From positions 4,138,552 through 4,202,551 of the forward strand of contig JAOSJT010000001.1 of assembly GCA_027493955.1 (NCBI GenBank): DNA of 64,000 nt, given 5' to 3'. The translations under genes and the position numbers were made by a program. Below are positions 5,601 to 51,911 of this stretch, one piece after another. The stretch is from Bacteroidia bacterium. Lineage in GTDB: Bacteria > Bacteroidota > Ignavibacteria > SZUA-365. Each line of letters begins with the position of its first letter. The first letter of the stretch is position 1. Below the pieces are notes generated by a model, which saw only the letters and a list, made by a program, of their open reading frames with translations, did no database searches and was not told the origin of the DNA.

Positions 5601-8600
5601 AACCATGTTGTTGACACTACGCGGGAGCGGCAGTGAATCCGAGCTTACGCTCGCGCCGACGCCTGTGGACTTTGGTTCGGTCAATGTTGGTGCCGACGTC
5701 ATGCGTTCTGTGCGGCTCAGTAATCCCGGCGCTTCCGTCGCGACAGTGACAGAAATACTATTCCGACCTCCAATGCCTGTCGGATCCGAGCACTTTACGC
5801 TCTCACCACCACCGTCATTGCCCTTCGCGCTGAATTCGGGAGCCAGCCGCGATCTGGACCTTCGTTTTTCACCACAAGCGATGGCATCGTACAGTGGGGA
5901 GCTCTGCATCATCGTCAGTACTCCGTGCCCGGATACCATCTGTGTGACGCTTTCGGGCCGTGGTACGTCGTCGGGACTCGGCGTGAGTCGCACTCGCCTG
6001 GATTACACACTCGATCCATGTACGCTTCTCGAAAAATGCGACACAGTGGAGGTGATCAACAACGGATCATCCCCGGTGCGCCTCACCGGTGCGGCCTTCG
6101 ATGATGCGGGTTGGTTTCAGCTCACCTTCCCGACCACATTTCCTCTGGATGTATTGCCCGGTTCACGGTTGATGTTTGTGGTCTGTGCGCAATCCGGATT
6201 CAGCGGAACGAGGAGCAGCTTTCTCCGGATAGGCACAAACGACGCCACGACACCGGAACTCCGCGTTATCGTGACGGCGGTGCGGGATTCTTCAGGATTC
6301 GCGACCTCCGAGCGCAGCTTCGACTTCGGCGCCATCGCTTCTTGCCAGATCGGTATGACGAGAACGCTGTCTTTGAGCAACACCGGTCTGATGATGGAAA
6401 TCATTGATACACTGGAAAACAACGCACCCTTCTTTGTGGAAGATGCCCTTCCCATAGTCCTGCAGCCGGGACAGCAGAAAACAGTGACGGTGCGCTTCTC
6501 GCCCGCGAGTTTCGGTGTTTTTCGCGACACACTCTTCTTCACCAACTCCCGCTGCGGGAAACGCATCGCGCTGGAGCTGCGAGGTGAATATCGCGCGGAC
6601 AACATCAGCGTCACGCCGGATCCGCTGCTGTTCAGCAATGTCCCCGTGGGATCATCCTCCATACGCAACATCACCTTCGGCAATGTTCATCTCGCACAGG
6701 TGCGCGTCGCCGACGTGCGTATTCAGCCGTCGGGAAGTTTCGCGTCCTCGGGAGCGTATCCCCGTACGGTGAGCCGTGGCGACACCATCGCCCTGCCGAT
6801 TCAGTTCGCTCCGCAAAGCGCCGGTCAGCACTCCGCGACCGCCTGCATCATCATAGATCAGCCCTGTGCGGACACCTTGTGCGTTACGCTGCAGGGGAGC
6901 ACCAGCGACGGAGAACTTCTTGCCCGTCCAGCGGTGCTCCATTTCGGTACCGTCGCGCAATGTGCGCAGACCATTCTTCAGGACACCATACGGAACATCA
7001 GCAGCGCGGACATACGGCTGCTGAGTTCTCGTATCGAAGGAAGCGGGGCCGCATTTTTCGAAATCCTGGATCCTGTCACTGCGGAAGAACTCCTGCCGCC
7101 GTCGGGCGAGCGGATTTTCACCATTCGCATCCTTCCTGCCGCGGCGGCGGATGGAAGTATGGACGCGCAGCTCGTGATCGAGAACACCGGAAGTCCCACC
7201 CTTTTCGCGATACCGCTTGCAGCGCAGCGTGTCACACTCATTGCAGCTGCCGGCGGGACTGTCGATTTCGGTTCTCTGTTCACCGGGGCTACCGAAAGCC
7301 GTCGTGTCACTCTGCGGAACAACGGCACTGCGCCTCTTCGCTATAGTACGCTGAATGCAACCCCGGGAGCGAGCATTGTACCGCAACCACCGTTCAGCAT
7401 CGCCCCGGGTGATTCTCTGGAGGTGGAGTTGTTACTCACACCTTCCATGAGTGGACAGTACCTGGGGAGTTTGCGACTTGATGCCACATCACCCTGCGCC
7501 GACTCCACGGTGTTCCTTCTCACGGCGGACGTTGCCGATGGTCTTGCCGCCGGAGCTCTTGATTTGGGGACGCGGCCAAGCTGTCTCCCGGCACAGGGGA
7601 GCGTGCTTGTCAGGAATACGCAAACCGTCGCTGCTGAGATCAGACAGCTGACCTTCACCGGATCGGATGCCGCCGCATTTCACGTGCTCGCTCCGTTATC
7701 GCTGCCGCTCACGCTTGCGCCCGGAGATTCGATCGAGGTGCTGATAGAATTTGCAGCCATCGGGGGTGAACGCGGGTACGGCGCGAACCTTGCCGTGCTG
7801 TTCCGAACCGGTTCTACCGATCTCATCGCCAATGCCGCCGTTTCGGCCGTCGCACACAGCGGTCGTTTATCGGGTCCGACAGTCGGGGATTTCGCCTCTG
7901 TCGAAATCAGTGCCGGAGGCGAATCGAGGAACTTCCTCTTCACGAACAACGCACCATTTGCTGTGCGCATTGCGAGCGCGACGGCTTCCGGGTCTGTGTT
8001 TACTCTCCTGTCCTCGACACCGCCCTTGCCAGCGACAGTGCAACCAGGCGCTACGGTGGAGTTCGCACTGCGCTTCGCTCCCGCTGCAACGGTCAGCTAT
8101 ACCGGGCAGCTCTCACTTACCTATGAATCGCCCTGTCCTCTTGTACAGGACATCCCGCTACGCGGAGACGGCATAGACACACGCCGACCGGTGGTACTGC
8201 GGCTGGCAAGCCTCGAAGGTGCCCCGGATGATGTGGTGGAAATACCGCTTTCCATTGACCGCGATCTCGGTGGACTCGTTACGGAATGGAGCGGCGAGAT
8301 CAGTCTCAATGCGAGCATGCTGTATCCGATGGAGGTAACTCTTGCCGGCACCCTGAGCGCGGATATGCAAGCGCAATTCAGCTACGATCAGACGAGCGGG
8401 ATAATCCGCGTCGCCGCCGCCGGCGCACCGCTGCGGAGCGGCAGCGGAGTGATCGCTATCGTGCGATGCCTTGTGCTGATAGGCGACGATACGACCTCGC
8501 CGTTACGCATCGAGCCTGAATTTTCTTTCGGCAGAGGAGCGCGCGTGGAGAGACGCGACGACGGCGAATTCACCCTGGTTGATTTTTGTGATGCCGACGG

Positions 8601-8886
8601 TCTGCGTCTCGTGCGCGACAGGGCAGGGCTGCGCATCGTATCTTCGTCACCCAGTCCCTTCACTGAAGCGCTGACGATAACCTTCGACATCGACAGCGAC
8701 GGGCCGGTGGATCTGCGCCTCTACGACGCGGCGGGTCGGGAAAGCGCAGTGCTCCTTGAGCGTGGCATGGAAGCGGGCAGGCACAGCATCACCCGCAGGA
8801 CACCCGACATAGGAGCAGGCACCTATTTCTGTGTTCTTCGCCACAATGGTCGTGCGGTCGCTACCCGCATCATCAGAGCGCGATGA
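2641..8886 (+). CDS. giant T9SS-secreted cell-surface protein (BNR/Ycf48-like beta-propeller plus ~12 tandem Ig-like 'choice-of-anchor/ASH'-type repeats, T9SS C-terminal sorting domain)
   Basis: Signal peptide MTAVFRTMAAVVLFTAGASGLLAQG at 2641 (the track ORF begins in the upstream leader at 2374). N-terminal WVCGSNGRLYKSTDNGNNW and YFTTDGGANW are BNR-like repeats. A ~105-aa module recurs about 12 times (LDFGxVxxGxxxxxxxTIxNxGxxxL...PCxDxxxxxLxGxG). The C-terminus ...PSPFTEALTITFDIDSDGPVDLRLYDAAGRESAVLLERGMEAGRHSITRRTPDIGAGTYFCVLRHNG matches the T9SS sorting domain pattern. Confidence 0.85.
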   Translation: MTAVFRTMAAVVLFTAGASGLLAQGSWVQVPTALQSNPNTHVQIGGLWGIAMADSGTGFAAGYASVAGGFSGVLRKTPGNPTWFVLPASSFTLLPANHSLWSAVTVVGTHVWVCGSNGRLYKSTDNGNNWFSSANGIAGTNTLFDIHFRTPDEGMVVGSSGTIYFTTDGGANWVPQTLPATVPGNTDLYGVDDAGSGMGYWYVTGGTHTLIRGVPRSSATSWVDLSANVPSNIGIIEGLQFYNDNIGTIAGVIATGSPIHRTVNAGASFTSIGASLPSGTYNGLHFFDQTTGWVGSASPALYYTSNTGTSWTQATITPLPSQNITNWLTRITFVGTDAGYASGGAPGTSSTGWILKYVPAQAPDISSTPTSLDFGTFSCGTFIEKQFTISNIGAGPLNINAINFSHPEFALLAPLPTPVPPLGGATFSVRWTPTQPGPVPSGARMTILTNDPVNPAWDVDLAGIFNSGTVTIPSPATAPVACVNDSVDIVVNATLTGNIQPQLINFEHISGSTGVRLVSPPVGSNLSGSPTLTFRYAAASPGTWSGTYRILYGDPLCPKIAVIVFEGTANSSTLTASPSLVDFGEVCIGQFKDMLITLTNTGTVDAVVSSRTLIGGTDAFPNQHFSPFGPIPPSGNRQYTVRFAPGSGDLGLVEGTFKLRIDPCGDSVIIVLRGTGVKPAITFTPTNLLALGPVPIGQTTDEQVTITNSGTGSISIDAIALKPTHPRLTLTGLPALPAQLGPSQSIIVTARFSPDRIETIVSELSVRYSGPCSDSARLPVIASSASAPTILVQSTLDMGENACPDPLIDTLYVKNLGPGVLTMSRFTIGGRDASHFRVLAPGTPAFVAVGDSTPIYISCDAPAPGVSEGTLTIEHDDPKTFNSSVVQLRSERILIGWRVEGDSVSVMTSCAHVGVNRTFDLRNTGLRTRTIKMLRMLSGGEVFHIASNPLPMDVPPGSARPFEVTFTPSGQGNFSGILEVVIGPCNETMLLTLRGSGSESELTLAPTPVDFGSVNVGADVMRSVRLSNPGASVATVTEILFRPPMPVGSEHFTLSPPPSLPFALNSGASRDLDLRFSPQAMASYSGELCIIVSTPCPDTICVTLSGRGTSSGLGVSRTRLDYTLDPCTLLEKCDTVEVINNGSSPVRLTGAAFDDAGWFQLTFPTTFPLDVLPGSRLMFVVCAQSGFSGTRSSFLRIGTNDATTPELRVIVTAVRDSSGFATSERSFDFGAIASCQIGMTRTLSLSNTGLMMEIIDTLENNAPFFVEDALPIVLQPGQQKTVTVRFSPASFGVFRDTLFFTNSRCGKRIALELRGEYRADNISVTPDPLLFSNVPVGSSSIRNITFGNVHLAQVRVADVRIQPSGSFASSGAYPRTVSRGDTIALPIQFAPQSAGQHSATACIIIDQPCADTLCVTLQGSTSDGELLARPAVLHFGTVAQCAQTILQDTIRNISSADIRLLSSRIEGSGAAFFEILDPVTAEELLPPSGERIFTIRILPAAAADGSMDAQLVIENTGSPTLFAIPLAAQRVTLIAAAGGTVDFGSLFTGATESRRVTLRNNGTAPLRYSTLNATPGASIVPQPPFSIAPGDSLEVELLLTPSMSGQYLGSLRLDATSPCADSTVFLLTADVADGLAAGALDLGTRPSCLPAQGSVLVRNTQTVAAEIRQLTFTGSDAAAFHVLAPLSLPLTLAPGDSIEVLIEFAAIGGERGYGANLAVLFRTGSTDLIANAAVSAVAHSGRLSGPTVGDFASVEISAGGESRNFLFTNNAPFAVRIASATASGSVFTLLSSTPPLPATVQPGATVEFALRFAPAATVSYTGQLSLTYESPCPLVQDIPLRGDGIDTRRPVVLRLASLEGAPDDVVEIPLSIDRDLGGLVTEWSGEISLNASMLYPMEVTLAGTLSADMQAQFSYDQTSGIIRVAAAGAPLRSGSGVIAIVRCLVLIGDDTTSPLRIEPEFSFGRGARVERRDDGEFTLVDFCDADGLRLVRDRAGLRIVSSSPSPFTEALTITFDIDSDGPVDLRLYDAAGRESAVLLERGMEAGRHSITRRTPDIGAGTYFCVLRHNGRAVATRIIRAR

Positions 8887-11079: not shown

Positions 11080-11328
11080 TATTGACGTGATGAGCCACGG
11101 GCGCTGTCTCCGTGTGCCCACGCCGCTGAAAATACCTGAGGGGGTCCGATACGTCGGGCCCCCTCTGTCATTGTGCACATATCGGTTGCCGCACTGTCCC
11201 GGCCATACTCTCCTTCGAACAGGACGCACTGATCGCACCGCGTCGGAGCGGCGGGTACCGCGAAGCCGACAGGGTGTTTACTGCTCCCCGCGTCGTCGTC
11301 GTCGTGCCAGCCTGCAGGGTGATATGTC

Positions 11329-11503
11329 CGCAATCCGCAATCACGCAGGCGGCCAGACGTGTCTCAACCGTGTTTCCGGATTATCGAATCCCTCCGCCTC
11401 AGACGAGCCGATTCCCGATTCCCGATTTCCGATTATCGATTCCCGATTCCCGATTATCGATTCCCGATTCCCAATTCCCGATTCCCGATTATCGATTCCC
11501 GAT
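11329..11503. repeat. partial copy of the dispersed repeat element (CGCAATC motif plus a 13-unit CGATTCC/CGATTAT heptanucleotide array)
   Basis: ccgcaatccgcaatcacgcaggcgg is followed by a period-7 array gattccc/gatttcc/gattatc (11410-11503). The same motifs occur at 26145-26506 and 28564-28725. Sits between convergent genes. The supplied ORFs 11087..11642 are repeat artefacts (IPDSRFPIIDSRFP...). Confidence 0.8.
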
Positions 11504-11538
11504 GAAATTCCGAGATGCATGCGCTCCGCTCTCCGCGC

Positions 11539-12384
11539 TCAAAACGAGTACACGAAGCTCACGGCGGGTCGGCCGTCAGCGATGCCGACGCCGAATGAAT
11601 CCAGAAAGGTGGGCGCGCCATTGTGAATGGCGGCATAGGTGAGATGGGAAATGAGTACACCGACGGCCGCACCAGTCATGACGTCACCGAGGTAATGTTT
11701 GTTGTCGCGTATGCGTGAATAGCCGACATAGCTGGCCCAACCGTAGGTGGATGCTGCCGCGGCAACTCGCAGGGCGTCACGCAAGAGAGGCCTCTCCCCA
11801 AGTGACTCCGACGCCATGATCGCATCATCCAATTCCATCTGCAGCCAGGAACAGGTCGCGAAGGCGACCGAGGTGTGACCACTGAAAAAACTCTTATCAT
11901 CACTCCCGTCAGGACGCATCCGATGTACGAGTGACTTCACCGTCTGTGTGGCGACCTGCGTGTACATCACACTGCGGTAGAGGCCGAAGGCGTGACGCAT
12001 TTCTTCCTCCGCGTCACCCTCTTCGCTCAGCAGCTCGATTGCGAGAATCTGAATCGTGCGCGCGCCGAGAATGGCGTGCGGCAATGCGAACGGATCCAGA
12101 CTGCCGAAGGACTCGGAGCCGCGCACGCCGAATTCTGTTGCAACTTCGCGTTCCAAACCGGTCGCGTGTATCAGGACGGGTTTACCAGCGGATTGAAGCG
12201 CCTCGTAACGGTTCACGAAATAAAAAAAGAACACCGGTGCGTCATACCAGGCGAATACGTCCCCCGCCGCATTCATCGAATGGGAGAGGAATCGGTTGAC
12301 GCGGTTCTCGTCACGATATTGTGCATGGGATATTGCTGGACCCAGAAGCCAGATCAGCAGGAGGGTGTGGAGTGTCGTCTTCAT
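11539..12384 (-). CDS. PAP2-superfamily phosphatase (secreted)
   Basis: Signal peptide MKTTLHTLLLIWLLGPAISHAQ. PAP2 motifs KSFFSGHTS (motif 2) and SRIRDNKHYLGDV (motif 3). Confidence 0.75.
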   Translation of the reverse strand: MKTTLHTLLLIWLLGPAISHAQYRDENRVNRFLSHSMNAAGDVFAWYDAPVFFFYFVNRYEALQSAGKPVLIHATGLEREVATEFGVRGSESFGSLDPFALPHAILGARTIQILAIELLSEEGDAEEEMRHAFGLYRSVMYTQVATQTVKSLVHRMRPDGSDDKSFFSGHTSVAFATCSWLQMELDDAIMASESLGERPLLRDALRVAAAASTYGWASYVGYSRIRDNKHYLGDVMTGAAVGVLISHLTYAAIHNGAPTFLDSFGVGIADGRPAVSFVYSF

Positions 12385-14720: not shown

Positions 14721-14759
14721 ATGTACGATCGACGAGTGACGAAGAGACGCATCGTACAT
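14721..14759 (-). terminator. candidate hairpin downstream of the GH31 gene, followed by a CGTCAAT heptamer array
   Basis: Inverted repeat atgtacgat-N21-atcgtacat at 14721-14759, 30-70 nt past the minus-strand stop at 14790. Followed (14762-14790) by cgtcaatcgtaaatcgtcactcgtcaat. No U-tract. Confidence 0.25.
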
Positions 14760-14789
14760 CCTACTTCGTCAATCGTAAATCGTCACTCG

Positions 14790-17267
14790 TCAATACCCTA
14801 TCGTCACGGTGCTCACGCCAGGAGCGAACGGTACAGTGATCTCGAAGCGACGGTGGGCGGCATCAACCCGTGCATCGGGTGGAACGGTGTTGGCGTCGGT
14901 GTCGAAAATGATGCGGTCGGCGGTCGCGACGCGGCGCGGCGAAGCGTCGGAACCGAAAAGCCGTAAACGTATCGCCTTGATATTCCGCGTTCGCACGCTT
15001 TCGGCGGCGTCAATGGTCAACCGCCAACCCCGCTCTTCCGCACCGAGGGAAAAACGCAGTACTTCGAAATCGCCCCGCTCATAACCATACCCCTCGCCGC
15101 TGTCAAGATACATCGTACCGCTGCCGCCGTCTTGTGGAACGATGTCCAGCACGAGTGTGTCGAGCTGTTTTTCACCGGTAAACTGCGGCGCATTTCTTCG
15201 CGGAATGATGGCTCCCGCTTTGTAGAACAACGGCAAACGACTCACGGGCGCATCGATGATCACGCGTTGACGGCCCTCGTAACTCTGGCCGGTCCAGGGA
15301 TCCAGCCACCGGCCCTCCGGCAGGTACACCTCCTGAAACCGCTGTCCCTCCTGTACCACCGGAGCGACGAGTATGTGATCACCGAACATCCATGTGTGTT
15401 GCCAGCGGCTGTCATATACCGCGGGATCGTTCTGATAGTCGTGCAGCAGCGGCCGCATCATCGGTGTGCCGCTTGTCGAGGCCTCGTGAAAAGCGCTGTA
15501 GATGTAAGGCAGGAACTCATAGCGCAGCGAAATGAAACGCCGGGCCAGCTCCTCCGTTTCCTCGCCGAAGGACCAGGGCTCCTGGTCGCGGGTGTTGATA
15601 TGCGTGTGCGATCGCATCAACGGAGTGAAAACTCCCGCCTGCAGCCACCGTACGTAAAGCTCCGGCGATGGCGAATCCATGAATCCGCCGATGTCCGTAC
15701 CGTTGAACGGCATACCGGACAAACTCAATCCGAGGCACATCCGTATACCCATGCGCAAATCGTCGAAACGTGCGGTATTGTCACCTGTCCAAATAGCCGC
15801 CCAGCGCTGTGTCCCCGCGAAGGCCGCGCGCGTGAGCACGAACGGTCTCTTATCTGGGTGACTTCGCCGCAGGCCATCAAAGGAGGCCTCCGCCATCAGA
15901 TGTCCGTACACATTGTGCATACGTTTGATCGTCGCAGGAGCGCCGTCGTTGTCGAACTGTACGAGATACGGAAATTCCCGGCCCCAGACTGCCGGCTCGT
16001 TCATGTCGTTCCAGAAGCCGTCCACGCCGATGTCCATCATTCGCGCGTATGCGTCTCCCCACCAGCGGCGGGTGTCCGCCCGCGAGAAGTCGGGGAAGTG
16101 ACACCAGCCAGGCCAGACCTGCCCGCTGTACAGCGTCCCGTCCGGGTATTTCAGGAAATGATCGCGGGCGATTCCCTGCTCGTACACGTCATAGCCGCGC
16201 TCGATCTTGATTCCGGGATCGATGATGGGCACGACTTTGAATCCCATCGCTTCCAGGTCGCTCAGCAACATGTGTGGATTCGGAAAGGCGGCGCTGTCCC
16301 ACGTGAATACCTTGTAGTTGTCCATATAACGGATGTCGAGATACAGCACATCGGCGGGAATGCCGCGCTGACGGAAATTTTTCGCAAGATCGCGGACCTC
16401 ATGCTCCGGATAATAACTCCAGCGACATTGCTGAAAACCGAGCGCCCACAGAGGCGGGAGGGGCATGCGTCCCGTGAGACCAGTGTACCGTCGCACAACG
16501 TCCCTCACGGCCGGACCGAATATGAAGTAATAATCCATTTCACCATCCTCGGCGCCGAAGGAATACACGCGGTCGCTGGCGGCTCCCATATTGAAAACAC
16601 TGCGGAAGCTGTTGTCGAAATAGATGCCATAGGCCCCTGCATCGCGCACACCAATGAAAAACGGGATCGAAGCGTACAGGGGATCGCGGTCGTTTCCATA
16701 ACCGGGGACGTCGGAGTTCCACATCACCCACTGACTGCCGCGCTTATTGACATCGCCGGTTTTTTCCCCCAGCCCATAAAAGCGCTCGTCCTGATGCAGG
16801 GTTTTCCAGACGTGAATTTCCTTGCCGTCCCAGGCGTGTCCGAATGCGCGGTCGTCGGAGGCGATCTCGCGCCCCTCGCCGTCGCGGAACACCAGCCGCA
16901 GTGGACGCTTGAGAATGTCTACTCTTCCGCCTGGCATGACCAACACCAGAGCGCTGTCCGTATCGTCGAGGTTCCAGTTCACAGCCGGAATTGCTTCGTG
17001 TCGTACGGCATGGGAGGGGTCGTTCAGCAAGGTGCCGTCGCGGCCTACCTGTATGCGCAGAACGGCCTCTCCGACGATGCTGAGACGCAGGACGTTGTTC
17101 TCCGCCCGAATACTGACACCGGCTGCGTCGCGTTCGTGGGAGACGTAGTCGCCGAGAGAGGTGTACTGATCCGCGTTGGCGGGGAGGGTCATGCGCACGA
17201 GCAGCAGAAGCCAAGGAATGCAGGCATGCCAACGTGCGGCGCGTAATGCGGATACAATGTGTTGCAT
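14790..17267 (-). CDS. glycoside hydrolase family 31 alpha-glucosidase/alpha-xylosidase
   Basis: GH31 catalytic region ...GVDGFWNDMNEP... and ...WTGDNTARFDDL... Signal peptide if started at M 17267 (MQHIVSALRAARWHACIPWLLLLVRMTLPANA). The 12 codons upstream (to 17303) are AT-rich and probably promoter sequence. Confidence 0.85.
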   Translation of the reverse strand: MQHIVSALRAARWHACIPWLLLLVRMTLPANADQYTSLGDYVSHERDAAGVSIRAENNVLRLSIVGEAVLRIQVGRDGTLLNDPSHAVRHEAIPAVNWNLDDTDSALVLVMPGGRVDILKRPLRLVFRDGEGREIASDDRAFGHAWDGKEIHVWKTLHQDERFYGLGEKTGDVNKRGSQWVMWNSDVPGYGNDRDPLYASIPFFIGVRDAGAYGIYFDNSFRSVFNMGAASDRVYSFGAEDGEMDYYFIFGPAVRDVVRRYTGLTGRMPLPPLWALGFQQCRWSYYPEHEVRDLAKNFRQRGIPADVLYLDIRYMDNYKVFTWDSAAFPNPHMLLSDLEAMGFKVVPIIDPGIKIERGYDVYEQGIARDHFLKYPDGTLYSGQVWPGWCHFPDFSRADTRRWWGDAYARMMDIGVDGFWNDMNEPAVWGREFPYLVQFDNDGAPATIKRMHNVYGHLMAEASFDGLRRSHPDKRPFVLTRAAFAGTQRWAAIWTGDNTARFDDLRMGIRMCLGLSLSGMPFNGTDIGGFMDSPSPELYVRWLQAGVFTPLMRSHTHINTRDQEPWSFGEETEELARRFISLRYEFLPYIYSAFHEASTSGTPMMRPLLHDYQNDPAVYDSRWQHTWMFGDHILVAPVVQEGQRFQEVYLPEGRWLDPWTGQSYEGRQRVIIDAPVSRLPLFYKAGAIIPRRNAPQFTGEKQLDTLVLDIVPQDGGSGTMYLDSGEGYGYERGDFEVLRFSLGAEERGWRLTIDAAESVRTRNIKAIRLRLFGSDASPRRVATADRIIFDTDANTVPPDARVDAAHRRFEITVPFAPGVSTVTIGY

Positions 17268-25773: not shown

Positions 25774-25924
25774 CCCACATCCGCGACCGGACACGGTCCA
25801 CACCGTACCATAGGCATGTTTTCGCAAAGTTCTGAATTCTGACAGCAGAACGCGGAGAGCAGAGAGCAGAGAGAGCTGAGCGCGTGCATCTCGCCGGCGT
25901 TGTGCGTTGTTGGTTCGAGATGCT

Positions 25925-26506
25925 TTCGCAAGGCGCTACGCCCTCTGCGCTACGTGAGCCTTTCACATCTCATTATTCACATCTCGACGGGAAGTTGCGC
26001 CCTCCGGGCTATTCTTCAAAAAGGGGGCGCATATCCCCTACACTGAAGTGTAGGTCGAAGACTCGCCGCGGCGGGGTTAGAGGAGGTTGCGTCAGCCTCA
26101 GGCTGAGCTTGGGACGCAATCAATTCTCTTCAATACGCAGCAACGCGGGCACGGCCCGCCGTAGGCCTACCGAGATTTCCGATTATCGATCCACAATCCG
26201 CAATTCGCAATCCGCAATCACGCAGGCGGCCCGCTGTGCCCCTACAGGCCCGGATGTAATGATCCGAAATCCGCAATCCCCAATCCGCAATCCACAATCC
26301 GAAATCCGCAATCACGCCGGCGACTCGCCGTGCCCCTACCACGATTTCCGATTATCGAGCCGCAATCCGCAATCCGCAATCCGAAATCCGCAATCACGCA
26401 GGCGCCTCGCCGTGCCCCTACCGGGATTTCATGATTCCGCGATTCCCGATTCCCGATTCCCGATTCCCGATTCCCGATTCCAGATTCCAGATTCCAGATT
26501 CCAGAA
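25925..26506. repeat. dispersed non-coding repeat element, copy A (unique ~250-bp head, GGGCACGG-CCCG-CCGTGCCC hairpin motifs, CGCAATC and CGATTCC/AGATTCC heptamer arrays)
   Basis: The head (gcgctacgccct.tgcgctacg.gagcc ... ttcacatctca ... gcgccct.cgggct ... cttgggacgc ... gcgggcacggcccgcc) aligns with 28366-28590. Three ~75-bp sub-repeats each carry (CGCAATC)n, then (CGATTCC)5(AGATTCC)4. All six reading frames are open, so the supplied ORFs here are artefacts. Confidence 0.8.
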
Positions 26507-26547
26507 AAACAATGTACTTCCTGGAAATTGGACATATCGGGGTTGCA

Positions 26548-28152: not shown

Positions 28153-28365
28153 GCCTTCTCTCCGTCATGATGGAATGCGCAAATCTGCGAAATCCGTCGG
28201 CAACATACAATGTGGTCGGCGGAGAGGGGGTGAAGAGGGGGTGAAGGGTAAAGGGTGCAGGGGTGCCTGTCTGCAGTCGAAAAGTAGATAAAAGACCAGA
28301 TAACCCCGAATATAAAAATGCGCTCTGCCTGTGAGACTTCACGCCTGGAGAAATCCGCCTGGGCT

Positions 28366-28725
28366 AAGCGCTACGCCCTTTTGCGCTACGCGAGCCGTTT
28401 ACTCAACCGAAGGCTGACACTTTTCACATCTCACCTGGAGTGGCGCCCTTCGGGCTTGGGAGCTCTTTGCTGGCTGCGTGCCCCCCACACTCACGTGTAG
28501 GGTTTTGGGAAGTGTCGCCCTTCGGGCTTGGGACGCGTATGATTTTCATTTGGATGTGACGACGCGGGCACGGCCCGCCGTGCCCCTACCGCGATTTCCG
28601 AGTATCGATCCGCAATCCTCAATCCGCAATCATGCAGGCGGCTCGCCGTGCCCCTACCGCGTTTCCGTGATTCCTGTTTCTCGATTCCCGATTCCCGATC
28701 CGAAATCGTCAATCGTCAATCGTAA
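28366..28725. repeat. dispersed non-coding repeat element, copy B (same orientation as copy A)
   Basis: Collinear with 25925-26240 (gcgctacgcccttttgcgctacgcgagcc, ttcacatctca, gcgcccttcgggcttggg, gcgggcacggcccgccgtgcccctacc). Ends in CGCAATC / CGATTCC / CGTCAAT heptamer runs abutting the stop of the next gene. Confidence 0.8.
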
Positions 28726-28726
28726 A

Positions 28727-31189
28727 TCAGCTCACCCTCACCACCACCATCGTCATGTCGTCGTGCTGCTCGGCTTTGCCGGCGAAGCGGCGGGTTTCGC
28801 GGTAGAGGCCGTCGAGGATTTGCGCGGCGCTGTCGCCGGCGTGACGCTGCAGGGTGACGGCCAGTCGCTCCTCGCCGAACTCCTCGCGCTTCGTGGTCAT
28901 CGCCTCGGGATAACCGTCTGTGTACAGCACGAATATGTCTCCCGGATGTATGGGCAGCGTCACTTCCTCGATCGTCTGCTCGAATTTCTCACCGCCCTCG
29001 AAACCCAGCGCCATACCGCGCGACTGTATCACATCCACATGGTGATCGGAATCCATGCGCATCACCGGCGTGTGTCCCGCGCGCGCGATGGTGACGCTGT
29101 GCGTCTTCAGATCGAACACGGCGTAAATCATGCTGATGAAATTGCCGCGCTCCACGTTCTCGTAAAACAGGCGGTTCATTTCCACGAGCACGCGCGAGGG
29201 CGAGGTGGAAAAACGTCCCAGCGCTTTGAGAAATCCTTTGGTCAGCGTCATGTAAAACGCGGCCTGCGTGCCCTTGCCGGATACGTCTCCTATGGCGATG
29301 CCGATTTTATCCGGTCCCAGGTCGATGAAGTCGTAGTAATCCCCGCCCACCTCCATCGCCGGCGCACAGCGCGAAGCGATATCCAGGCCGGGGAAATGCG
29401 GATCGTGCTTCGGCAAAAAGCCCATCTGCACATCCCGCGCAATCTCCAGCTCGCGCGACAAACGCTGCCGCTCCGAAATATGCCGCTGGAAGCGGGGCGC
29501 GATCTTTTCGAAATCGCTCACCGTATCGCGTGTGACGAGGGCCAGCACGGCGAACAGCAGCATCGCCAGACCCACAGCCAGCAACAGCATTCCCTCGGAT
29601 TGATACGCGGTGTTCCAGGGCAGAAGCAGCAAACCACCTTTATGGACAATCAGACCCGCACTCAGTCCGCTGATGCCGGCCATGACATCCGCGGATACAA
29701 ACAGCAGTATCACAACGAGCGCAGGAAGCAGAGTAAGCGCTATTCCGCTCCAGAGAGGTTGCAGAGCGAGCGGATTCGGCAGAGCAAGCACCAATGCGCC
29801 CATCGGGAGCAGCAACCAAGGGGTGCGTAGTCGTTGACGGACCAGGGACACAACGAACATCACCGCGAAAGCGAAAGCAAACACACCGCTGTTCAATGAA
29901 TCGCCGAGCACAAAAAGCGCCGGCATACCGGAACTGAACATGTCGAAGGCATTATCCGATTTGTGCACGATACCAATGCCGCCGTCAGGAGCGAACAACC
30001 CGAGCGCGGTCACGCCAATACCCGTCATGAGTAATCCGCCCGACAGACCGCGTAACAGTGCATGCCCGATACGCGAATGAAGGACGTGCCCGCGCGTAAG
30101 CAGATCCACAGTGATGAATTTCTCTTTCCACGTTTCCCGCCCCACCGACTCTCCCACAGCCCAGACGACGAACATTGCGCCGCCGACGAGCAACGGAGCG
30201 AGCAGGAGTGGGAACAGGAGTTCCGGCTCCCAAACCGCCTCCGCGCGGAGCTGGAGGTAAAACCACGTGCCGAACAGCAGCGCCGTGACACCGCTGATAA
30301 GAAGGGCCGTTCGAAAACCGATCTCATACGCCCGCAGTCTCCGGATACCGGTCACAATCAGCAGTATCGAGAGGCCAACGTAAAAGAGCACCTGCAGTAT
30401 CTCTCCCATGTATCCGCCCTCACTCCCGGCCGCTGATGACGTTGCTCTGGGTTCAAGGGAGAAGCGGGTCACGGTACCACCGGCAAGATCCACGCGTACG
30501 TCGATGCTGTCACCTGTCCGGGCATCAAATGCGGCCCAGGAAGCCGAATAGTTTCTTCGCGCAGGTGATTCGTTCCGCGTCCAGCGAACACTGTCGCCGG
30601 GTGCGAAACCGCGCTGTGTGCGTGCAGCGGCATTCAGCCCGAGCGGACCGCGGTACATCGAGTCTGCGTGCGTCCGTATCAGACGCTCCACTGTACCGAG
30701 CGCCTCGTGCGGCGAGAGAGACGGAAGCGAAACCGAATCGGGTACGGGAACGAGCAAGTAGAGCAGTGATCCGTCAGTGTGGAATCGCATCTGAATGTCG
30801 CCCTTGAGAATGCGGTCCACGATGCGTTCTTCGGAATTCGAAATGCGCAGGGAGGTAGCTCCGTCGGGGTCGGCGCGGAATATGCGGACGCGCCAGTGAT
30901 ATGCCGAAGAGGAGAGTGCAGCCGGGACCGCGTCGGTGGGCGGCCCCTTGCGCGCGCCCATCTCCTCAGAAGAGCTCTGACGTAGCCTCGGAAGAATGGT
31001 GAAGCGCACGGAATCGAGATGCAGATCCGCAAGCACAGCTTGCGAGCGGAAGCGGATACTGTCGCTGTTCACAGTGAGACGCATCATGGACCAGGGGTGG
31101 GCGGTGGGATAGAAGTACAGCAGAAGAATCAATCCCGCGACTCCGCCGGCGAGCCAGAGCCAGGTGATAGCGCGTTCGCTCTGTAACAT
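28727..31189 (-). CDS. membrane sensor serine phosphatase: N-terminal TM plus ~250-aa extracytoplasmic domain, multi-pass (7TM-receptor-like) region, C-terminal PP2C/SpoIIE domain
   Basis: The C-terminal ~230 aa (..AMEVGGDYYDFIDL...GDVSGKGTQAAFYM...ARAGHTP...YTDGYPEA...HDDMTMVVVRV) is a SpoIIE/RsbU-type PP2C. The upstream half has ~7 hydrophobic helices. Start assigned to M 31189 (MLQSERAITWLWLAGGVAGLILLLYF). The track ORF extends to 31453 through the divergent promoter region. Confidence 0.8.
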   Translation of the reverse strand: MLQSERAITWLWLAGGVAGLILLLYFYPTAHPWSMMRLTVNSDSIRFRSQAVLADLHLDSVRFTILPRLRQSSSEEMGARKGPPTDAVPAALSSSAYHWRVRIFRADPDGATSLRISNSEERIVDRILKGDIQMRFHTDGSLLYLLVPVPDSVSLPSLSPHEALGTVERLIRTHADSMYRGPLGLNAAARTQRGFAPGDSVRWTRNESPARRNYSASWAAFDARTGDSIDVRVDLAGGTVTRFSLEPRATSSAAGSEGGYMGEILQVLFYVGLSILLIVTGIRRLRAYEIGFRTALLISGVTALLFGTWFYLQLRAEAVWEPELLFPLLLAPLLVGGAMFVVWAVGESVGRETWKEKFITVDLLTRGHVLHSRIGHALLRGLSGGLLMTGIGVTALGLFAPDGGIGIVHKSDNAFDMFSSGMPALFVLGDSLNSGVFAFAFAVMFVVSLVRQRLRTPWLLLPMGALVLALPNPLALQPLWSGIALTLLPALVVILLFVSADVMAGISGLSAGLIVHKGGLLLLPWNTAYQSEGMLLLAVGLAMLLFAVLALVTRDTVSDFEKIAPRFQRHISERQRLSRELEIARDVQMGFLPKHDPHFPGLDIASRCAPAMEVGGDYYDFIDLGPDKIGIAIGDVSGKGTQAAFYMTLTKGFLKALGRFSTSPSRVLVEMNRLFYENVERGNFISMIYAVFDLKTHSVTIARAGHTPVMRMDSDHHVDVIQSRGMALGFEGGEKFEQTIEEVTLPIHPGDIFVLYTDGYPEAMTTKREEFGEERLAVTLQRHAGDSAAQILDGLYRETRRFAGKAEQHDDMTMVVVRVS

Positions 31190-36123: not shown

Positions 36124-37148
36124 TGGAACCTTCGCACGATACCGACGCGCTAGCAGCCCTCGGAACGGAGTTCACCGGCACCGCTCCGAACGCGGTGATC
36201 GCGCTCAAGGGTGACGCTTCCGACCGCAGGATTTACCGGCTTGTGTATTCTTCGCAAAGTCTGATCGGCGTCGTCGGACCCAATGTGGCGGAGAACCGCG
36301 CCTTCATCGGCTTCGCGCGCTCCTTCCGCGCCGCAGGATTGCATGTGCCGGAAGTGTATCGCGTATCGGAACACGAGCAGGCGTATCTGCAGGAGGATCT
36401 CGGAGACGCGCTTTTCAGCGACTGGCAACGGACACATACGACAGCCGAGGGTGTGGATGGCGAGGCCATGGCCCTGTACGGCATCGTATTGCAAGAGCTG
36501 CTGCGTTTTCAGCACGACGCCGCCTCCGCAGTGGATTATTCACTGTGTTATCAGACCCGCGAGTTCTCGACCGAAGCGATGCTTTTCGACATCCGTTATT
36601 TCCGCGACAACTTCCTTGCACGTCTCGCAGAAGTTCCGTGGGACGAGCGGCGTTTCATGGCCGATTGCAACCTGCTGGTCGAAATGCTGTGCCGGGAGCC
36701 GCGCAACGGTTTCCTCTACCGAGATTTTCAATCCCGCAATGTCATGCTGCGCGATGGCACACCCTGGTTCATAGATTTCCAATCCGGCCGAAAGGGCGCT
36801 CCGCAGTATGACCTCGCGTCCATGCTGTACGACTCAAAGGGCGGGCTTACAACCGCGCAGCGCGAGACGCTCATCGATCAGTACATTGCCGGCCTGAGGT
36901 CGCGGTATGATGTCGATGAAGTCGTTTTCCGGCGCCGTTTCGCCGGTTTCGCCGTGTTGCGGCTCATGCAGGCACTCGGCGCTTTCGCCAACCTCGGTCT
37001 GAACAAAGGCAAACCAACGTACCTCGAGTTCATTCCGTCACGTTTGAGCACAATGCGCGAGGTCGTTTCCTCAGCGGTAATTCTCGACGAAGTCCCGTAT
37101 CTGAGGGGTTTGTTGCTGCGGTGCGGTGATGGTGGTGATTCAGAGTGA
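36123..37148 (+). CDS. aminoglycoside-phosphotransferase-fold sugar kinase, AmgK-like (anomeric MurNAc/GlcNAc kinase); LicA-type alternative not excluded
   Basis: APH/ChoK-family catalytic loop YRDFQSRNVML (Brenner motif HxDxxxxN with Y) and IDFQSG metal-binding loop; 341 aa; a nucleotidyltransferase gene follows in the same direction. Starts TGATG-overlapped with the DUF885 stop. Confidence 0.6.
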   Translation: MEPSHDTDALAALGTEFTGTAPNAVIALKGDASDRRIYRLVYSSQSLIGVVGPNVAENRAFIGFARSFRAAGLHVPEVYRVSEHEQAYLQEDLGDALFSDWQRTHTTAEGVDGEAMALYGIVLQELLRFQHDAASAVDYSLCYQTREFSTEAMLFDIRYFRDNFLARLAEVPWDERRFMADCNLLVEMLCREPRNGFLYRDFQSRNVMLRDGTPWFIDFQSGRKGAPQYDLASMLYDSKGGLTTAQRETLIDQYIAGLRSRYDVDEVVFRRRFAGFAVLRLMQALGAFANLGLNKGKPTYLEFIPSRLSTMREVVSSAVILDEVPYLRGLLLRCGDGGDSE

Positions 37149-37149
37149 T

Positions 37150-37705
37150 AAGCGAAGTAAAGAGTGAAGAGTAAAGAGTAAAGAGTGAAGAGCGTCAACC
37201 AAGGAGCTAGCGCTGTAACTGCAGAATATACGAAAACGAACCCCTTTACTCTTTACTCTTTACCCTTCACGAATCCTATGAGTTTATAGATTCACATCCC
37301 ATCATGAGCAGACGTTCTGAAGTTACAGAAATATATGCGTAACAGAACCCCTTTACCCTTTACTCTTTACCCTTCACGAATCCAAGGAGTTTATCGATTC
37401 GCATTCCATCCTGAGCAGACGTTTTGAAGTTACAGAAATATATGCGTAACAGAACCCCTTTACCCTTTACTCTTTACCCTTCACGAATCCTATGAGTTTA
37501 TAGATTCACATCCCATCATGGGCAGACGTTCTGAAGTTACAGAAATATATGCGTAACAGAACCCCTTTACCCTTTACTCTTTACCCTTCACGAATCCTAT
37601 GAGTTTATAGATTCACATCCCATCATGAGCAGACGTTCTGAAGTTACAGAAATATATGCGTAACAGAACCCCTCTACCCTTTACTCTTTACCCTTTACGA
37701 ATTCC
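37150..37705 (+). repeat. 107-bp tandem repeat array (~4.5 copies) preceded by an inverted GTAAAGA/GTGAAGA heptamer block; lower GC than surroundings
   Basis: cagacgttctgaagttacag recurs at 37309, 37416, 37523 and 37630 (period 107). Each unit contains ..cctttaccctttactctttacccttcac.. and atgagcagacgttctgaagttacagaaatatatgcgtaa. The final copy merges into the start of ORF 37706. Confidence 0.85.
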
Positions 37706-38104
37706 ATGAGTCTGTTGATTCACATCGCATCATTCGGATACAGAAAATCCGGTATCCCCGCAGACGAGTCCGGCCATGGCGGCGGGTATGTGTTCGACTG
37801 CCGCGGTTTGCCGAATCCCGGACGCGAAGAGCGCTTTCAGGCGCTGACGGGATTGGACGCGGAGGTGGAACTGTTTCTTGCGGCTGAGGAGGCGGTAGAG
37901 GATTTTCTTGCGCACTGCCTTGCGCTCTGTCTGAGTACGGCGGAGGCGCATCGGCGCAGGGATTTTACGCAGCTGTCCGTAAGCTTCGGCTGCACGGGAG
38001 GTCAGCATCGCTCGGTGTACTGCGCCGAACGGACGGCACAGGCCCTGCGCGATGCGGGGTATGATGTCGTCGTGACGCATAACGAACGGGAGCATTGGCC
38101 ATGA
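37706..38104 (+). CDS. RapZ (YhbJ/YvcJ) C-terminal-domain-like protein lacking the P-loop NTPase half
   Basis: 132 aa; ...VSFGCTGGQHRSVYCAERTAQALRDAGYDV matches, as recalled, the GCTGG(Q/K)HRSV block of the RapZ family C-terminal domain; no Walker A. Stop overlaps the start of the next gene (ATGA). Confidence 0.45.
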   Translation: MSLLIHIASFGYRKSGIPADESGHGGGYVFDCRGLPNPGREERFQALTGLDAEVELFLAAEEAVEDFLAHCLALCLSTAEAHRRRDFTQLSVSFGCTGGQHRSVYCAERTAQALRDAGYDVVVTHNEREHWP

Positions 38105-42300: not shown

Positions 42301-43390
42301 ATGAGCGGCGGTGACAAGGGCGGCAAGATTCACCGCCGTGTGCAGAAGCGCAAGGATATAGAGAAACAGTGGCGTAAAGGTGAGGCGCGCTGGTCCTACG
42401 AGGGGGATGCGGAAGCGGACGAAAACAGTCTTCAGCATGTGCTCGGCGCTCCGCGGCGGCATCACCTTGTGGATACACACGGTGAGCACGAAGCCGTTGT
42501 CGTGCAAACGGGAGGGACGCATACGCTGCTGCAGGATGGGACGGTCATTCTTCGCGCCAAACCCCGCCGTTCCACCACCAGCGAGAACCGCAAAAGCACT
42601 CTCATCGCCATCGGCGACCGCGTCCGCTACCGCCCCGCGAGCGCGGATGAAGCCATCATCACGCACGTGTACGAACGCAATTCCTGGCTGCTTCGCCAGT
42701 CTATCCGTGATGCCGAGTATGCGCAGGTGCTCGTGGCGAATATCGACATGGTGGTGGTCACGACTGCGGCGACCGCCGAATTGCTTCGTCCCGGCCTCAT
42801 CGATCGTTATCTCATCGCAGCCGCCATGGGCGGGATGGACACCTGCGTGGTCGTGAATAAGATTGATTTACCGGACGAAGAAGACCGCGCGTGGGTGGAG
42901 GAAGTGGCCGCCATGTACCGCGACGCCGGGTATGAGGCGGTACTGACGAGCTGCGTGACGGGCGAGGGGATGGAAGAACTCCGGGTCGTACTGAAGGATA
43001 AACTCAGCGCGTTTTCCGGTCACAGTGGTGTTGGTAAAACCAGTATTCTCAACGAACTTCTCCCGGAGCTCCGGGAAAAAACCGCAGATCTGAGCGAGCA
43101 AAGCCAGCGCGGCATGCACACCACCACGCGCAGTACCCTGTACGCACTACCCGGCGGGGGCGCCATCGCCGACACGCCCGGCATACGCGAGTTCGGACTC
43201 TTTTATTTTGACCCCGCAGAGCTGCACAGCTACTACCCGGAGTTTGTTGCTCTCTCGCGCGACTGCCGCTTCCCCCATTGCACCCACACACATGAACCCG
43301 GCTGCGCCGTCCGCGACGCCGTAGACCGCGAAGAAATCCATCCCCTCCGCTATCGCAACTACCTCCAGATACTCGAAAGTCAGCAAGCGT

Positions 43391-43392
<2 letters not shown>
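42301..43392 (+). CDS. rsgA: ribosome small-subunit-dependent GTPase A
   Basis: Circularly permuted GTPase motifs (VVNKIDL ... GHSGVGKTSILN ... DTPGIREFGL) and C-terminal zinc finger CRFPHCTHTHEPGCAV. Carries a ~40-aa Lys/Arg-rich N-terminal extension. Confidence 0.85.
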
Positions 43393-43893
<501 letters not shown>

Positions 43894-44265: not shown

Positions 44266-44356
44266 GTCATACTCCCAAAGTGAGTGGAATGAAAAAAAAC
44301 ATCAATACCTGTGCGGTATTAACGAAATGCGTAAATCTTTCCTGGATACAAATAGA

Positions 44357-45120
44357 AGAGAGCAGAGAGCAGAGAGCAGAGAGCAGAGAGCAGAGAGCAG
44401 AGAGCACGTCCATAGAAGACCAGGAAATCCGCACAAGATCCTGACTCCGCTTCCTGCACGACCGTCCGACCTGCACGACCATGCTCCCCGCTCTCTGCTC
44501 TCCGCTCCTGCACAAGCGTTCGACTCGCATGGCCGTGCTCTCTGCTCTCCGCTCCTGCACAAGCGTTCGACTCGCATGGCCGTGCTCTCTGCTCTCCGCT
44601 CCTGCACAAGCGTTCGACTCGCATGGCCGTGCTCTCTGCTCTCCGCTCCTGCACAAGCGTTCGACTCGCATGGCCGTGCTCTCTGCTTTCCGCTCCTGCA
44701 CAAGCGTTCGACTCGCATGGCCGTGCTCTCCGCTCTCCGCTCCTGCACAAGCGTTCGACTCGTATGGCCGTGCTCTCTGCTCTCCGCTCCTGCACAAGCG
44801 TTCGACTCGCATGGCCGTGCTCTCTGCTCTCCGCTCCTGCACAAGCGTTCGACTCGCATGGCCGTGCTCTCTGCTCTCCGCTCCTGCACAAGCGTTCGAC
44901 TCGCATGGCCGTGCTCTCTGCTCTCCGCTCCTGCACAAGCGTTCGACTCGCATGGCCGTGCTCTCTGCTCTCCGCTCTCCGCTCCTGCACAAGCGTTCGA
45001 CTCGCATGGCCGTGCTCTCTGCTCTCCGCTCCTGCACCAGCATCCGACTCGCATGGTCGTGCTCTCCGCTCTCTGCTCTCCGCTCCTGCACGACCGGCCG
45101 ACCTGCACGACCGTGCTCCC
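44357..45120. repeat. composite minisatellite, right copy: (GCAGAGA)x7-8, identical 85-bp linker, 47-bp unit x ~12
   Basis: Same orientation and linker (agcacgtccatagaagac.aggaaatccgcacaagatcctgactccgcttcctgcacgaccgtccgacctgcacgaccatgctcc) as the left copy. The heptamer differs by one base (GCAGAGA vs GCGGAGA). Ends at the stop of the next minus-strand gene. Confidence 0.9.
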
Positions 45121-51881: not shown

Positions 51882-51911
51882 CGTACGATGTACGAATGAC
51901 GAATTGCGATT

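Follow-up and report, generated by a model that had tools for sequence, protein, structure and literature searches.

Why should the spacers between ordinary protein genes be filled, again and again, with tandem copies of seven-base units, several of which begin at a stop codon or even supply it? The question is raised by a 64-kb stretch of contig JAOSJT010000001.1 (assembly GCA_027493955.1; the whole stretch is called the window below), where such arrays recur in one gap after another, for example at 28222-28262 ahead of a symporter gene. Heptamer repeats have been a puzzle to microbiologists since 1990. The explanation that we prefer, with a probability of roughly 0.55, is that the arrays are the arms of stem-loop cassettes in gene spacers, similar to the intervening sequences (IVSs) of 23S rRNA, and that unpaired arrays are single arms or remnants of such cassettes. 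The argument starts from the arrays themselves and leads to their association with one gene family, PF05635.

Heptamer arrays in the window

Tandem Repeats Finder reported dozens of period-7 arrays in the window. An exact lag-autocorrelation gave 11 runs (275 bases) at lag 7, three at lag 14, one at lag 3 and none at lags 4-6 or 8-13, and 20 dinucleotide-preserving shuffles of the window contained no exact run at all. Seven is the sole enriched tandem period in the window. A mismatch-tolerant scan yielded 20 arrays covering 820 bases. They fall into five unit families, and the units consist of 4-5 fixed and 2-3 variable positions:

Family A: CGATTCC/CGATTAT, on the minus strand GGGAATC/GATAATC; 11406-11503, 26433-26507 and 28669-28699
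Family B: CGCAATC, in minus sense GATTGCG; 26189-26224, 26262-26313, 26356-26400 and 28608-28631
Family C: CGTCAAT/CGTAAAT, or ACGATTN in the sense of the GH31 gene; 14750-14794 and 28700-28729, each containing the stop codon of a minus-strand gene (GH31, TCA at 14790-14792; SpoIIE, TCA at 28727-28729)
Family D: GCGGAGA/GCAGAGA; 25844-25880, 43392-43484 and 44352-44408
Family E: GAGTAAA/GGGTGAA; 28222-28262 and 37156-37194

Head-to-tail 7-base units in several arrays per genome characterise the heptamer class of repeats, and here at least 20 arrays of five families lie within 64 kb. The arrays had been listed in a first-pass annotation of the sequence, and all of them were located by Tandem Repeats Finder and by direct reading. 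One further array near 52 kb was also present (52003-52068, plus strand) but did not have a pure 7-base period, since 7- and 8-base units are mixed in it. The annotation had spoken of a window-wide habit of intergenic period-7 arrays. This describes the window well, the enrichment being extreme and specific to the period and the arrays being non-coding and situated at gene ends. It had not mentioned the inverted pairing of arrays, which is the key to their anatomy, nor the larger repeat units, the PF05635 gene and the strand polarity described below.

Complementary arms and higher-order units

On the 3' side of the family D and E arrays we found arrays of the reverse-complementary sequence (37241-37699, 43559-43879 and 44482-45089). 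Families D and E and part of family C have complementary partners downstream, with which long stems are predicted. The repeat tool gave arm complementarities of 93% over 27 nt, 94% over 33 nt, 89% over 27 nt and 85% over 20 nt. Compared with shuffled sequences, the predicted RNA folds were more stable at 37140-37290 (z = -6.4), 43385-43620 (z = -4.0), 51875-52085 (z = -5.2) and, on the minus strand, 28540-28735 (z = -3.8), and no shuffled control matched the stability of the fold in any of these four regions. The elements concerned are as follows:

14725-14794 (minus): family C hairpin in which the arm 14764-14794 (ACGATTN, holding the GH31 stop codon) faces 14725-14744; 85% complementary over 20 nt, 93% over 15 nt
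37156-37194 (plus): family E purine arm, GAGTAAA/GAGTGAA, 5.3 copies, starting 8 nt past the APH stop codon
37238-37733 (plus): 107-bp unit, 4.6 copies, made of the family E pyrimidine arm (CTTTACC/CTTTACT) and a decayed ~35-nt copy of the start of RapZ_C; the final copy merges into the real RapZ_C start at 37706
43392-43484 (plus): family D purine arm, GCGGAGA, 12.6 copies with 100% matches, starting at the RsgA stop codon
43485-43566 (plus): conserved loop of the family D module, with a second copy at 44409-44489; kept in L176 and L179
43559-43890 (plus): 47-bp unit, 6.5 copies (tandem array 43567-43879), with family D pyrimidine heptamers (TGCTCTC CGCTCC); on the minus strand a purine arm after the PF05635 stop codon
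43894-44265 (minus): PF05635/TIGR02436 four-helix-bundle gene, 123 aa
44352-44408 (plus): family D array, GCAGAGA, 7.1 perfect copies; on the minus strand a pyrimidine arm upstream of the PF05635 start codon
44482-45089 (plus): 47-bp unit, 12.4 copies (tandem array 44490-45078), with family D pyrimidine heptamers; purine-rich on the minus strand, where it follows the stop codon (45123) of a 691-aa gene
51882-51952 (plus): degenerate ACGAWNN heptamers 1 nt past the DUF3108 stop codon, then a 23-nt perfect-type palindrome at 51907-51952
51949-52068 (plus): hairpin resembling family E; the purine arm covers 51949-51978 and the pyrimidine arm, of mixed 7- and 8-base units, 52003-52068, which leaves 93 nt to the next start codon

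With tandem repeats on both sides, the arms are free to pair in many registers. Several pairings offset by 7 nt were indeed reported at each locus by the repeat tool, which implies that the predicted stems tolerate slippage and that the gain or loss of a unit would leave them intact.

Copies of the 47-bp and 107-bp units follow one another directly, with 93-95% identity over their whole length; as there are no spacers, a CRISPR reading of these arrays was ruled out. Alignment showed that the loop end, the pyrimidine arm and the start of RapZ_C (~35 nt) are duplicated in each 107-bp unit, and the same unit is single-copy in a 95% relative. Secondary tandem duplication of segments that contain an arm therefore gave rise to the higher-order arrays. 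The RapZ_C gene (37706-38104) codes for a 132-aa protein limited to the C-terminal domain (PF22740) of the RNase adapter RapZ. This stand-alone gene is conserved in the 95% relative (L003, from 21252 onward), and four decayed ~35-nt gene starts are left in the 107-bp repeats upstream of it in the window. In a 79% relative (L008, 11684-11774) a hairpin of like design is built from 9-base units, (GAGAGTAAG)n facing (CTCTTTATT)n, which indicates that tandem-unit hairpins are not strictly bound to period 7.

A PF05635 gene in the predicted loop

One cassette of the window carries a gene. The open reading frame (ORF) at 43894-44265 matches PF05635/TIGR02436, the Avd-like family of 23S rRNA intervening-sequence proteins, and lies between the two 47-bp arrays; its product is related to the pentameric four-helix-bundle protein Xcc0516 (PDB 2GSC). 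In a predicted fold of a 641-nt minus-strand RNA (z = -5.4) the whole ORF occupies the loop of a ~50-bp stem with the arms (GCUCUCU)7 and GGAGCGGAGAGCAGAGAGCA. All other cassettes of the window are empty. Two hallmarks of intervening sequences, an inverted repeat forming a long stem and a PF05635 ORF in its loop, are therefore present in the predicted fold. The third, insertion in helix 25 or 45 of 23S rRNA, is not, the cassettes being situated between protein genes, and a scan of the whole window at Rfam gathering thresholds found no family match and no rRNA. Exact-sequence look-ups of the PF05635 and RsgA proteins gave no match. A diversity-generating retroelement was considered and rejected, as no reverse-transcriptase domain was found in the window ORFs scanned or beside the orthologues. 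To our knowledge, no function has been assigned outside such retroelements to the very large PF05635/TIGR02436 family.

PF05635 genes are bracketed by heptamer arms elsewhere

Eighty Bacteroidota argH loci served as a control set. Among them the Prevotellaceae and Bacteroidales loci turned out to be densely populated with heptamer arrays, up to 21 in 21 kb, which often form complementary pairs and include some units of the window (GAGTGAA, AAATCGT). A Prevotella locus (L077) has three near-identical cassettes in adjacent operon junctions, each beginning at the stop codon and ending ~10 nt short of the next start codon, with the layout (GAGTGAA)4-GAATTTGCTACCGC…GCGGCAGCAAATTC-(TTCACTC)4. One of the three contains a PF05635 gene, and the empty ones have the same loop ends. 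A single orthologous junction in different Prevotellaceae was either empty (0-16 nt) or filled with short heptamer runs of one orientation, hairpins of varied families or PF05635 cassettes, with a length of up to 158 nt. In the Bacteroidota and window loci taken together, all 16 PF05635 ORFs were bracketed by complementary arms.

An independent test was made with 80 metagenome loci encoding PF05635 relatives, retrieved with 5 PF05635 sequences as queries. Usable flanks were available for 77, and an arm score of at least 12 was taken as bracketing. Inverted arms enclosed the gene in 67 of the 77 loci (87%). Shuffled flanks had a mean arm score of 7.8, and ~6% of loci reached 12 in the best of 10 shuffles; among real genes used as controls, five of the 83 that were neighbours lay between arms, as did 32 of a further 1083 (3-6%). 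The arms are heptameric, with a self-identity of 0.6-0.94 at lag 7 as opposed to 0.0-0.4 at lags 5, 6, 8 and 9, in agreement with the repeat tool. In the sense of the PF05635 gene the upstream arm was G-rich in 56 loci and C-rich in 8. Unit families track clusters of PF05635 proteins: TAAGTNN accompanied 48 of the 50 members of one cluster, and CAGCNNT and GCAATTN arms belonged to separate, homogeneous sub-clusters, a correspondence that is confounded by host phylogeny.

When plasmids were searched by tblastn, the window PF05635 protein had homologues in cyanobacteria only (Nostoc, Calothrix, Anabaena, Aulosira, Stanieria and Geminocystis). Six of the eight copies inspected were bracketed by complementary arrays resembling the short tandemly repeated repetitive (STRR) sequences of cyanobacteria. 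On plasmid pANA02 of Anabaena sp. 90 (NC_019429.1, 44265-44633; L169) the PF05635 gene lies between cas6 and cas4 of a CRISPR-Cas locus and is flanked by (AGGTGAC)n/(GTCACCT)n arrays.

The cassettes were also compared with miniature inverted-repeat transposable elements and Correia elements. Observed were inverted arms, the three near-identical copies of L077, filled and empty orthologous sites, and a cassette that stands with its arms at a different locus (L181, see below). Neither a flanking direct duplication, as judged by eye, nor a transposase was seen at the cassettes.

Placement and strand polarity

Every array of the window lies in a non-coding gap according to the ORF map and Pfam. 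Among gaps of at least 50 nt on this map, arrays occupied 3 of 4 convergent, 5 of 9 co-directional and 0 of 2 divergent gaps, which are small numbers. The stop codons of RsgA, GH31, SpoIIE, PAP2, the DUF3108 gene and the PF05635 gene begin an array or lie within one, so that the placement at gene 3' ends noted in the first-pass annotation is borne out. In the wider Bacteroidota set 96 of 142 arrays were outside ORFs, even though ORFs make up 85% of the sequence, and 59 of the 78 arrays at gene boundaries came within 10 nt of a stop or start codon.

The arrays are also polar. Of the 19 stop-proximal arrays in the window, 18 had a purine fraction of 0.50-0.85 in the sense of the gene that ends there, the exception being the second arm of a hairpin, while all three start-proximal arrays were pyrimidine-rich (purine fraction 0.12-0.16). 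The rule is valid for genes of either strand within one stretch of chromosome, and it therefore follows transcription rather than replication or chromosome strand.

Conservation and turnover among relatives

The nearest named argH homologues were from Bacteroidota, at ~55-61% identity, and the only close GTDB species representative reached 79%. Both support the earlier suggestion of a genome of the Fibrobacteres-Chlorobi-Bacteroidetes (FCB) type. The close representative (L008, CAYJMN010000022.1) was labelled 'uncultured Chromatiales bacterium' by its submitters; this is probably wrong, because proteins of L008 and of the window are closest to Bacteroidota and the relatives carry Por_Secre_tail domains of type IX secretion.

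Comparison with relatives, as the first-pass annotation had proposed, revealed that array positions are kept while lengths and sequences vary. Syntenic contigs at 95% (L003/L004) and 79% (L006/L008) had heptamer arrays in the same gaps; no heptamer arrays were found in a 60% relative (L007). An (AATCGTN)n array at the SpoIIE stop codon was retained in all three genomes, down to 79% protein identity, with 3.6-6 copies. The hairpin between APH and RapZ_C keeps its loop, while its purine arm counts 5.3 units in the window and 16.6 units in L003. The PF05635 cassette occupies the same locus in 98% and 95% relatives, with 1-4 copies of the 47-bp unit (12.4 in the window) and 2-3 heptamers per arm; the relatives' counts come from metagenome assemblies, in which repeats may be partly collapsed. 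Two contigs of the same strain from other samples (L001/L002) differed from the window by one substitution and had equal copy numbers in the part covered.

In a 68% lineage the PF05635 orthologue lies at a different locus, between arms of an AGAGCNN family with 10-18 units each. There the ORF extends ~19 codons into the downstream array (L181, 4001-4429, and L182, 4400-4720), giving 142 instead of 123 aa. The gene following the cassette differs between these two samples, a TonB receptor in one and MacB/FtsX in the other, which may be a scaffolding artefact because L181 contains a run of N.

Other arrays and hairpin modules

The remaining arrays of the window belong mainly to families A and B and lie for the most part in two regions:

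11327-11347 (minus): family B array (GATTGCG), 2.9 copies, beside a GC-hairpin module in the convergent gap between OmpA (plus) and PAP2 (minus)
11406-11503 (minus): family A array (GGGAATC/GATAATC), 13.7 copies with no complementary partner, 36 nt away from the stop codon of PAP2
11521-11540 (minus): short GCGGAGA-like array of family D that overlaps the stop codon of PAP2, in whose sense it is purine-rich
25844-25880 (plus): family D array, GCAGAGA/GCGGAGA, 4-5 copies, 71 nt past the argH stop codon and purine-rich in the sense of argH
26143-26420 (minus): three ~95-bp units, each composed of a GC-hairpin module (…GCCGTGCCCCTAC), GATTTCCGATTATCGA and a family B array (26189-26224, 26262-26313 and 26356-26400)
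26433-26507 (minus): family A array, five copies of GGGAATC followed by four of TGGAATC, 41 nt from the symporter stop codon
26548-28152 (minus): sodium:solute symporter gene
28222-28262 (plus): family E array (GGGGGTGAAGA/GGGTAAA), G-rich on the plus strand; the array singled out in the first-pass annotation
28562-28660 (minus): two GC-hairpin modules on either side of the family B array 28608-28631
28669-28729 (minus): family A array (28669-28699) followed by a family C array (28700-28729) that contains the SpoIIE stop codon (28727-28729)

The array at 28222-28262 is pyrimidine-rich in the sense of the symporter gene, whose start codon is 70 nt away, and no partner arm was found nearby. At 28669-28729 families A and C pair at 5 of 7 positions in the RNA fold, and orthologous arrays are present in L003, L004 and L008. 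Families A and B are interleaved with GGGCACGGC…GCCGTGCCC hairpin modules specific to this genome; among all fetched loci the GCCGTGCCCCTAC module was found only in copies of this same genome. A further element, GTGTCGCCCTTCGGGCTTGGGA, a hairpin with a GCCC-UUCG-GGGC tetraloop, recurs in the repeat islands (28436-28460, 28510-28535 and ~25990-26040). In L003 (11386-12455) it forms part of a 73-bp unit of ~13 copies, together with CTCTTCA/CCCTTTA heptamers.

The symporter gene lies between two repeat islands (gaps 25774-26547 and 28153-28726). It is missing from the orthologous argH-SpoIIE gap of three relatives (L003, L004 and L006/L008), which have a single repeat-filled gap of 0.4-1.25 kb instead, a pattern suggestive of a gene gained or lost at a repeat island. 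The short-read contigs of the same strain (L001, L002) stop exactly in the repeats flanking the symporter. Arrays of this kind thus mark sites of gene gain and loss between relatives, and they break short-read assemblies exactly at gene boundaries.

Proposed stem-loop cassettes and alternative explanations

We propose that a typical cassette would consist of a purine-rich heptamer array at, or a few bases past, the stop codon of the upstream gene, a loop that is either empty or bears a PF05635 gene, and a pyrimidine-rich array of the same unit family ahead of the next gene. If the spacer is co-transcribed with its flanking genes, the arms would pair, loop out the spacer and bring the stop codon of one gene beside the start codon of the next. 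By analogy with rRNA IVSs, the stem is probably cut by RNase III or blocks 3' exonucleases and so would mark transcript boundaries; the restored proximity of stop and start codon is suggested by the geometry. Slippage and unequal recombination would lengthen and shorten the arrays and may also have produced the 47-bp and 107-bp arrays. Partnerless arrays (families A and B, mostly in convergent gaps) would be solo purine arms at 3' ends. That the arrays are transcribed and fold in vivo we infer, as we do any effect on expression.

Several findings weigh against this explanation. Families A and B have no complementary partner in the window, either by the repeat tool or in a partner scan, and across all loci a partner within 600 nt was found for 51 of 162 arrays (12 of 162 in the control). 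The notion that every heptamer array is a hairpin arm was rejected on these figures. At variable positions the complementarity of arms was 0.73 within a locus and 0.71 between different loci (p = 0.05), hence there is no clear compensatory evolution of the sort expected of a selected RNA stem, which pairing in many registers may explain. The purine/pyrimidine polarity was weaker in the wider Bacteroidota set (0.58 vs 0.46, p = 0.03), PF05635 occurs in one of ~8 repeat islands of the window, and a possible collapse of repeats in the assemblies may affect the turnover figures.

It might be thought that the arrays are functionless simple-sequence repeats which arise because slippage favours 7-base units, are tolerated only in non-coding DNA, and pair or lie at gene ends merely as a by-product. 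The first-pass annotation had considered slippage hot spots, and the fast change of copy number among close relatives (5.3 vs 16.6 and 12.4 vs 1-4 units) fits this idea, as do the Prevotellaceae junction that ranges from empty to 158 nt, the missing arm-specific covariation and the many unpaired arrays. Slippage alone, however, leaves unexplained the transcription-linked polarity, the start of arrays at stop codons (a stop or start codon is no more than 10 nt away from 59 of the 78 boundary arrays) and the persistence of (AATCGTN)n at the SpoIIE stop down to 79% identity. Nor does it account for the association with a single gene family (87% vs 3-6%) or for units shared between distant phyla (GGGAATC with Xanthomonas, GAGTGAA with Prevotella), and we consider it unlikely as the whole explanation. 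Alternatively, the arrays could be multivalent binding sites, a function also listed in the first-pass annotation. Each heptamer would be the footprint of one subunit of a protein that recognises single- or double-stranded heptamers, with the pentameric PF05635 protein, a cold-shock protein or ribosomal protein S1 as candidates, and inverted arrays would then be opposed binding arrays rather than an RNA stem. Units with 4-5 fixed and 2-3 variable positions, also described in PMC4692102, would suit such sites. Three to five units are typical of an arm, PF05635 proteins form pentamers (PMC4990558, PMC10053308), the binding of heptamer repeats by cold-shock proteins involves one protein per unit (PMC4679880), unit families track PF05635 clusters (TAAGTNN in 48 of 50), and AGAGCNN arms accompany the window orthologue at its different locus. 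The negative covariation result and the many unpaired arrays also suit binding sites better than stems and keep this idea alive. Yet at least five unit families share 64 kb with only one PF05635 gene, and host phylogeny confounds the correspondence of unit families with protein clusters. We regard binding in place of a stem as rather improbable, although protein binding as such is compatible with the stem-loop model.

Regulatory G-quadruplexes or i-motifs, proposed for GGGAATC in Xanthomonas and GGGGAYT in Nostoc, could be formed by family A, which is GGGAATC and has at least four G3 runs (26433-26507, 11406-11503). The array 28222-28262 has five runs of at least three G and is likewise capable of forming one; it is G-rich on the non-coding strand upstream of a gene, as in PMC4692102. 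Families B, C and D and the array at 37156 have no G runs, and neither do most units elsewhere (TAAGTNN, GTTTACA, AGCAATT). With four or more runs of at least three G confined to family A and 28222-28262, G-quadruplexes were rejected as a general explanation, and as the main role of the arrays they seem very improbable. Much the same low probability applies to intrinsic (Rho-independent) terminators, a function that the first-pass annotation had entertained. Stable stems directly past stop codons would be in keeping with it, but no U-tract follows the stems, the Prevotella hairpins lie inside one operon ~10 nt before the next start codon, and a consensus scan of the window found 12 terminator-like sites where 15.5 were expected, none of them at a heptamer hairpin. 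Sigma-70 promoters were likewise not enriched in a consensus scan of the window, and none coincided with arrays.

Relation to known repeats

Intergenic heptamer repeats are a known kind of sequence, also in Bacteroidota. Among the long simple-sequence repeats of prokaryotes, those with heptanucleotide units are the most abundant (Mrazek 2007, as cited in PMC4679880), and replication slippage with a preference for 7-base units has been put forward to explain them (Mrazek et al. 2007, cited in both PMC4679880 and PMC4692102). Rehm et al. 2015 (PMC4692102) described GGGAATC in Xanthomonas and GGGGAYT in Nostoc, about 90% of them intergenic, with fixed and variable unit positions, close to ORF ends, rare between divergent genes and frequent in convergent pairs. 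The G-rich strand was the coding strand downstream of genes and the non-coding strand upstream, and repeat positions were conserved between relatives while length varied. The window arrays share nearly every one of these properties, although its two divergent gaps, both free of arrays, are too few to establish rarity there, and family A has the identical GGGAATC unit of Xanthomonas. Unlike those repeats, the window has at least five families in 64 kb, most of them without G runs, arms amplified into 47-bp and 107-bp units, and an uncultured FCB-group lineage as host; a link to PF05635 is not mentioned in PMC4692102. The resemblance to the STRR sequences of heterocystous cyanobacteria claimed in the first-pass annotation thus stands, the more so as cyanobacterial plasmid copies of PF05635 are flanked by STRR-like arrays, and so does the FCB-type origin. 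Its implied novelty for such a genome does not: MacGregor 2015 (PMC4679880) reported arrays of TAACTGA and other heptamers in cyanobacteria, Beggiatoaceae and five Bacteroidetes, and they are dense in our Prevotellaceae loci, so the window is not the first of its sort. TAACTGA repeats, too, are tandem heptamers in spacers, patchy across phyla and in some Flavobacteriia forming long mixed arrays. They differ in being mostly sets of 2-6 copies directly upstream of start codons and almost never inverted, whereas the window arrays lie mainly at 3' ends and are often paired.

A close parallel for the gene-bearing cassette is the Coxiella 23S rRNA IVS, an inverted-repeat stem around an S23p (PF05635) ORF (Warrier et al., PMC4990558). 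Two to three strain-variable GACAGAT heptamers lie upstream of this ORF, the first of them being the site in the stem at which RNase III cuts. As in the rRNA IVSs of Coxiella, Leptospira, Xanthomonas and Brucella (PMC4990558), the window stem encloses a PF05635 ORF, but the window cassettes lie in protein-gene spacers, have long heptamer arrays as arms and are mostly empty. Abundant intergenic, hairpin-forming mosaic repeats at 3' ends also recall the repetitive extragenic palindromes (REP) and bacterial interspersed mosaic elements (BIME) of enterobacteria and the Correia elements of Neisseria. REP, BIME and Correia sequences are co-transcribed with genes, and Correia elements are bound or cut by RNase III (PMC2649163); for the window, transcription is inferred. 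Those elements are unit-length palindromes or inverted repeats moved by dedicated transposases, in contrast to the 7-base tandem arrays described here, with which no REP-associated tyrosine transposase or other transposase is associated.

As far as we have checked, the polar paired arms, their amplification into 47-bp and 107-bp units and the specific association with PF05635 across phyla appear to be new. For a general link between PF05635 and heptamers the literature yielded only the Coxiella observation, with subscription journals outside its coverage, so that an earlier description is possible. The function of heptamer repeats is still called unknown in PMC4692102 and PMC4679880. The association (87% vs 3-6%), which extends over Bacteroidota, cyanobacteria, the FCB lineage and the Coxiella IVS, merges the question of the repeats and that of the protein family into one testable hypothesis. 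We raise a wider idea tentatively, as a possibility we would not bet on: STRR, GGGAATC, TAACTGA and the window arrays might all belong, whether as arms or as remnants, to a single ancient class of self-looping intervening sequences that spans phyla. The sole protein cargo of this class would be the PF05635 pentamer, which would read the arrays with one subunit per unit, and the 23S rRNA IVSs would represent the special case of an insertion into rRNA. If true, a large uncharacterised protein family and a whole class of bacterial repeats would both gain a function.

Other features of the window

Not all tandem repeats of the window are built from heptamers. At 60289-60512, right after the dnaG stop codon, a 58-bp unit is repeated 3.9 times with 95% identity. 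From 60.9 to 64 kb the G+C content falls to 44-52%, and the region, which contains ORFs without a Pfam match and a PIN-domain gene (63368-63799), may be an accessory island. At the other end of the window, an ORF of 2170 aa (2374-8886), unrelated to the arrays, is composed of Ig-like domains of the HYDIN/ASH/Cep192 type and BNR-like repeats and probably encodes a giant surface protein.

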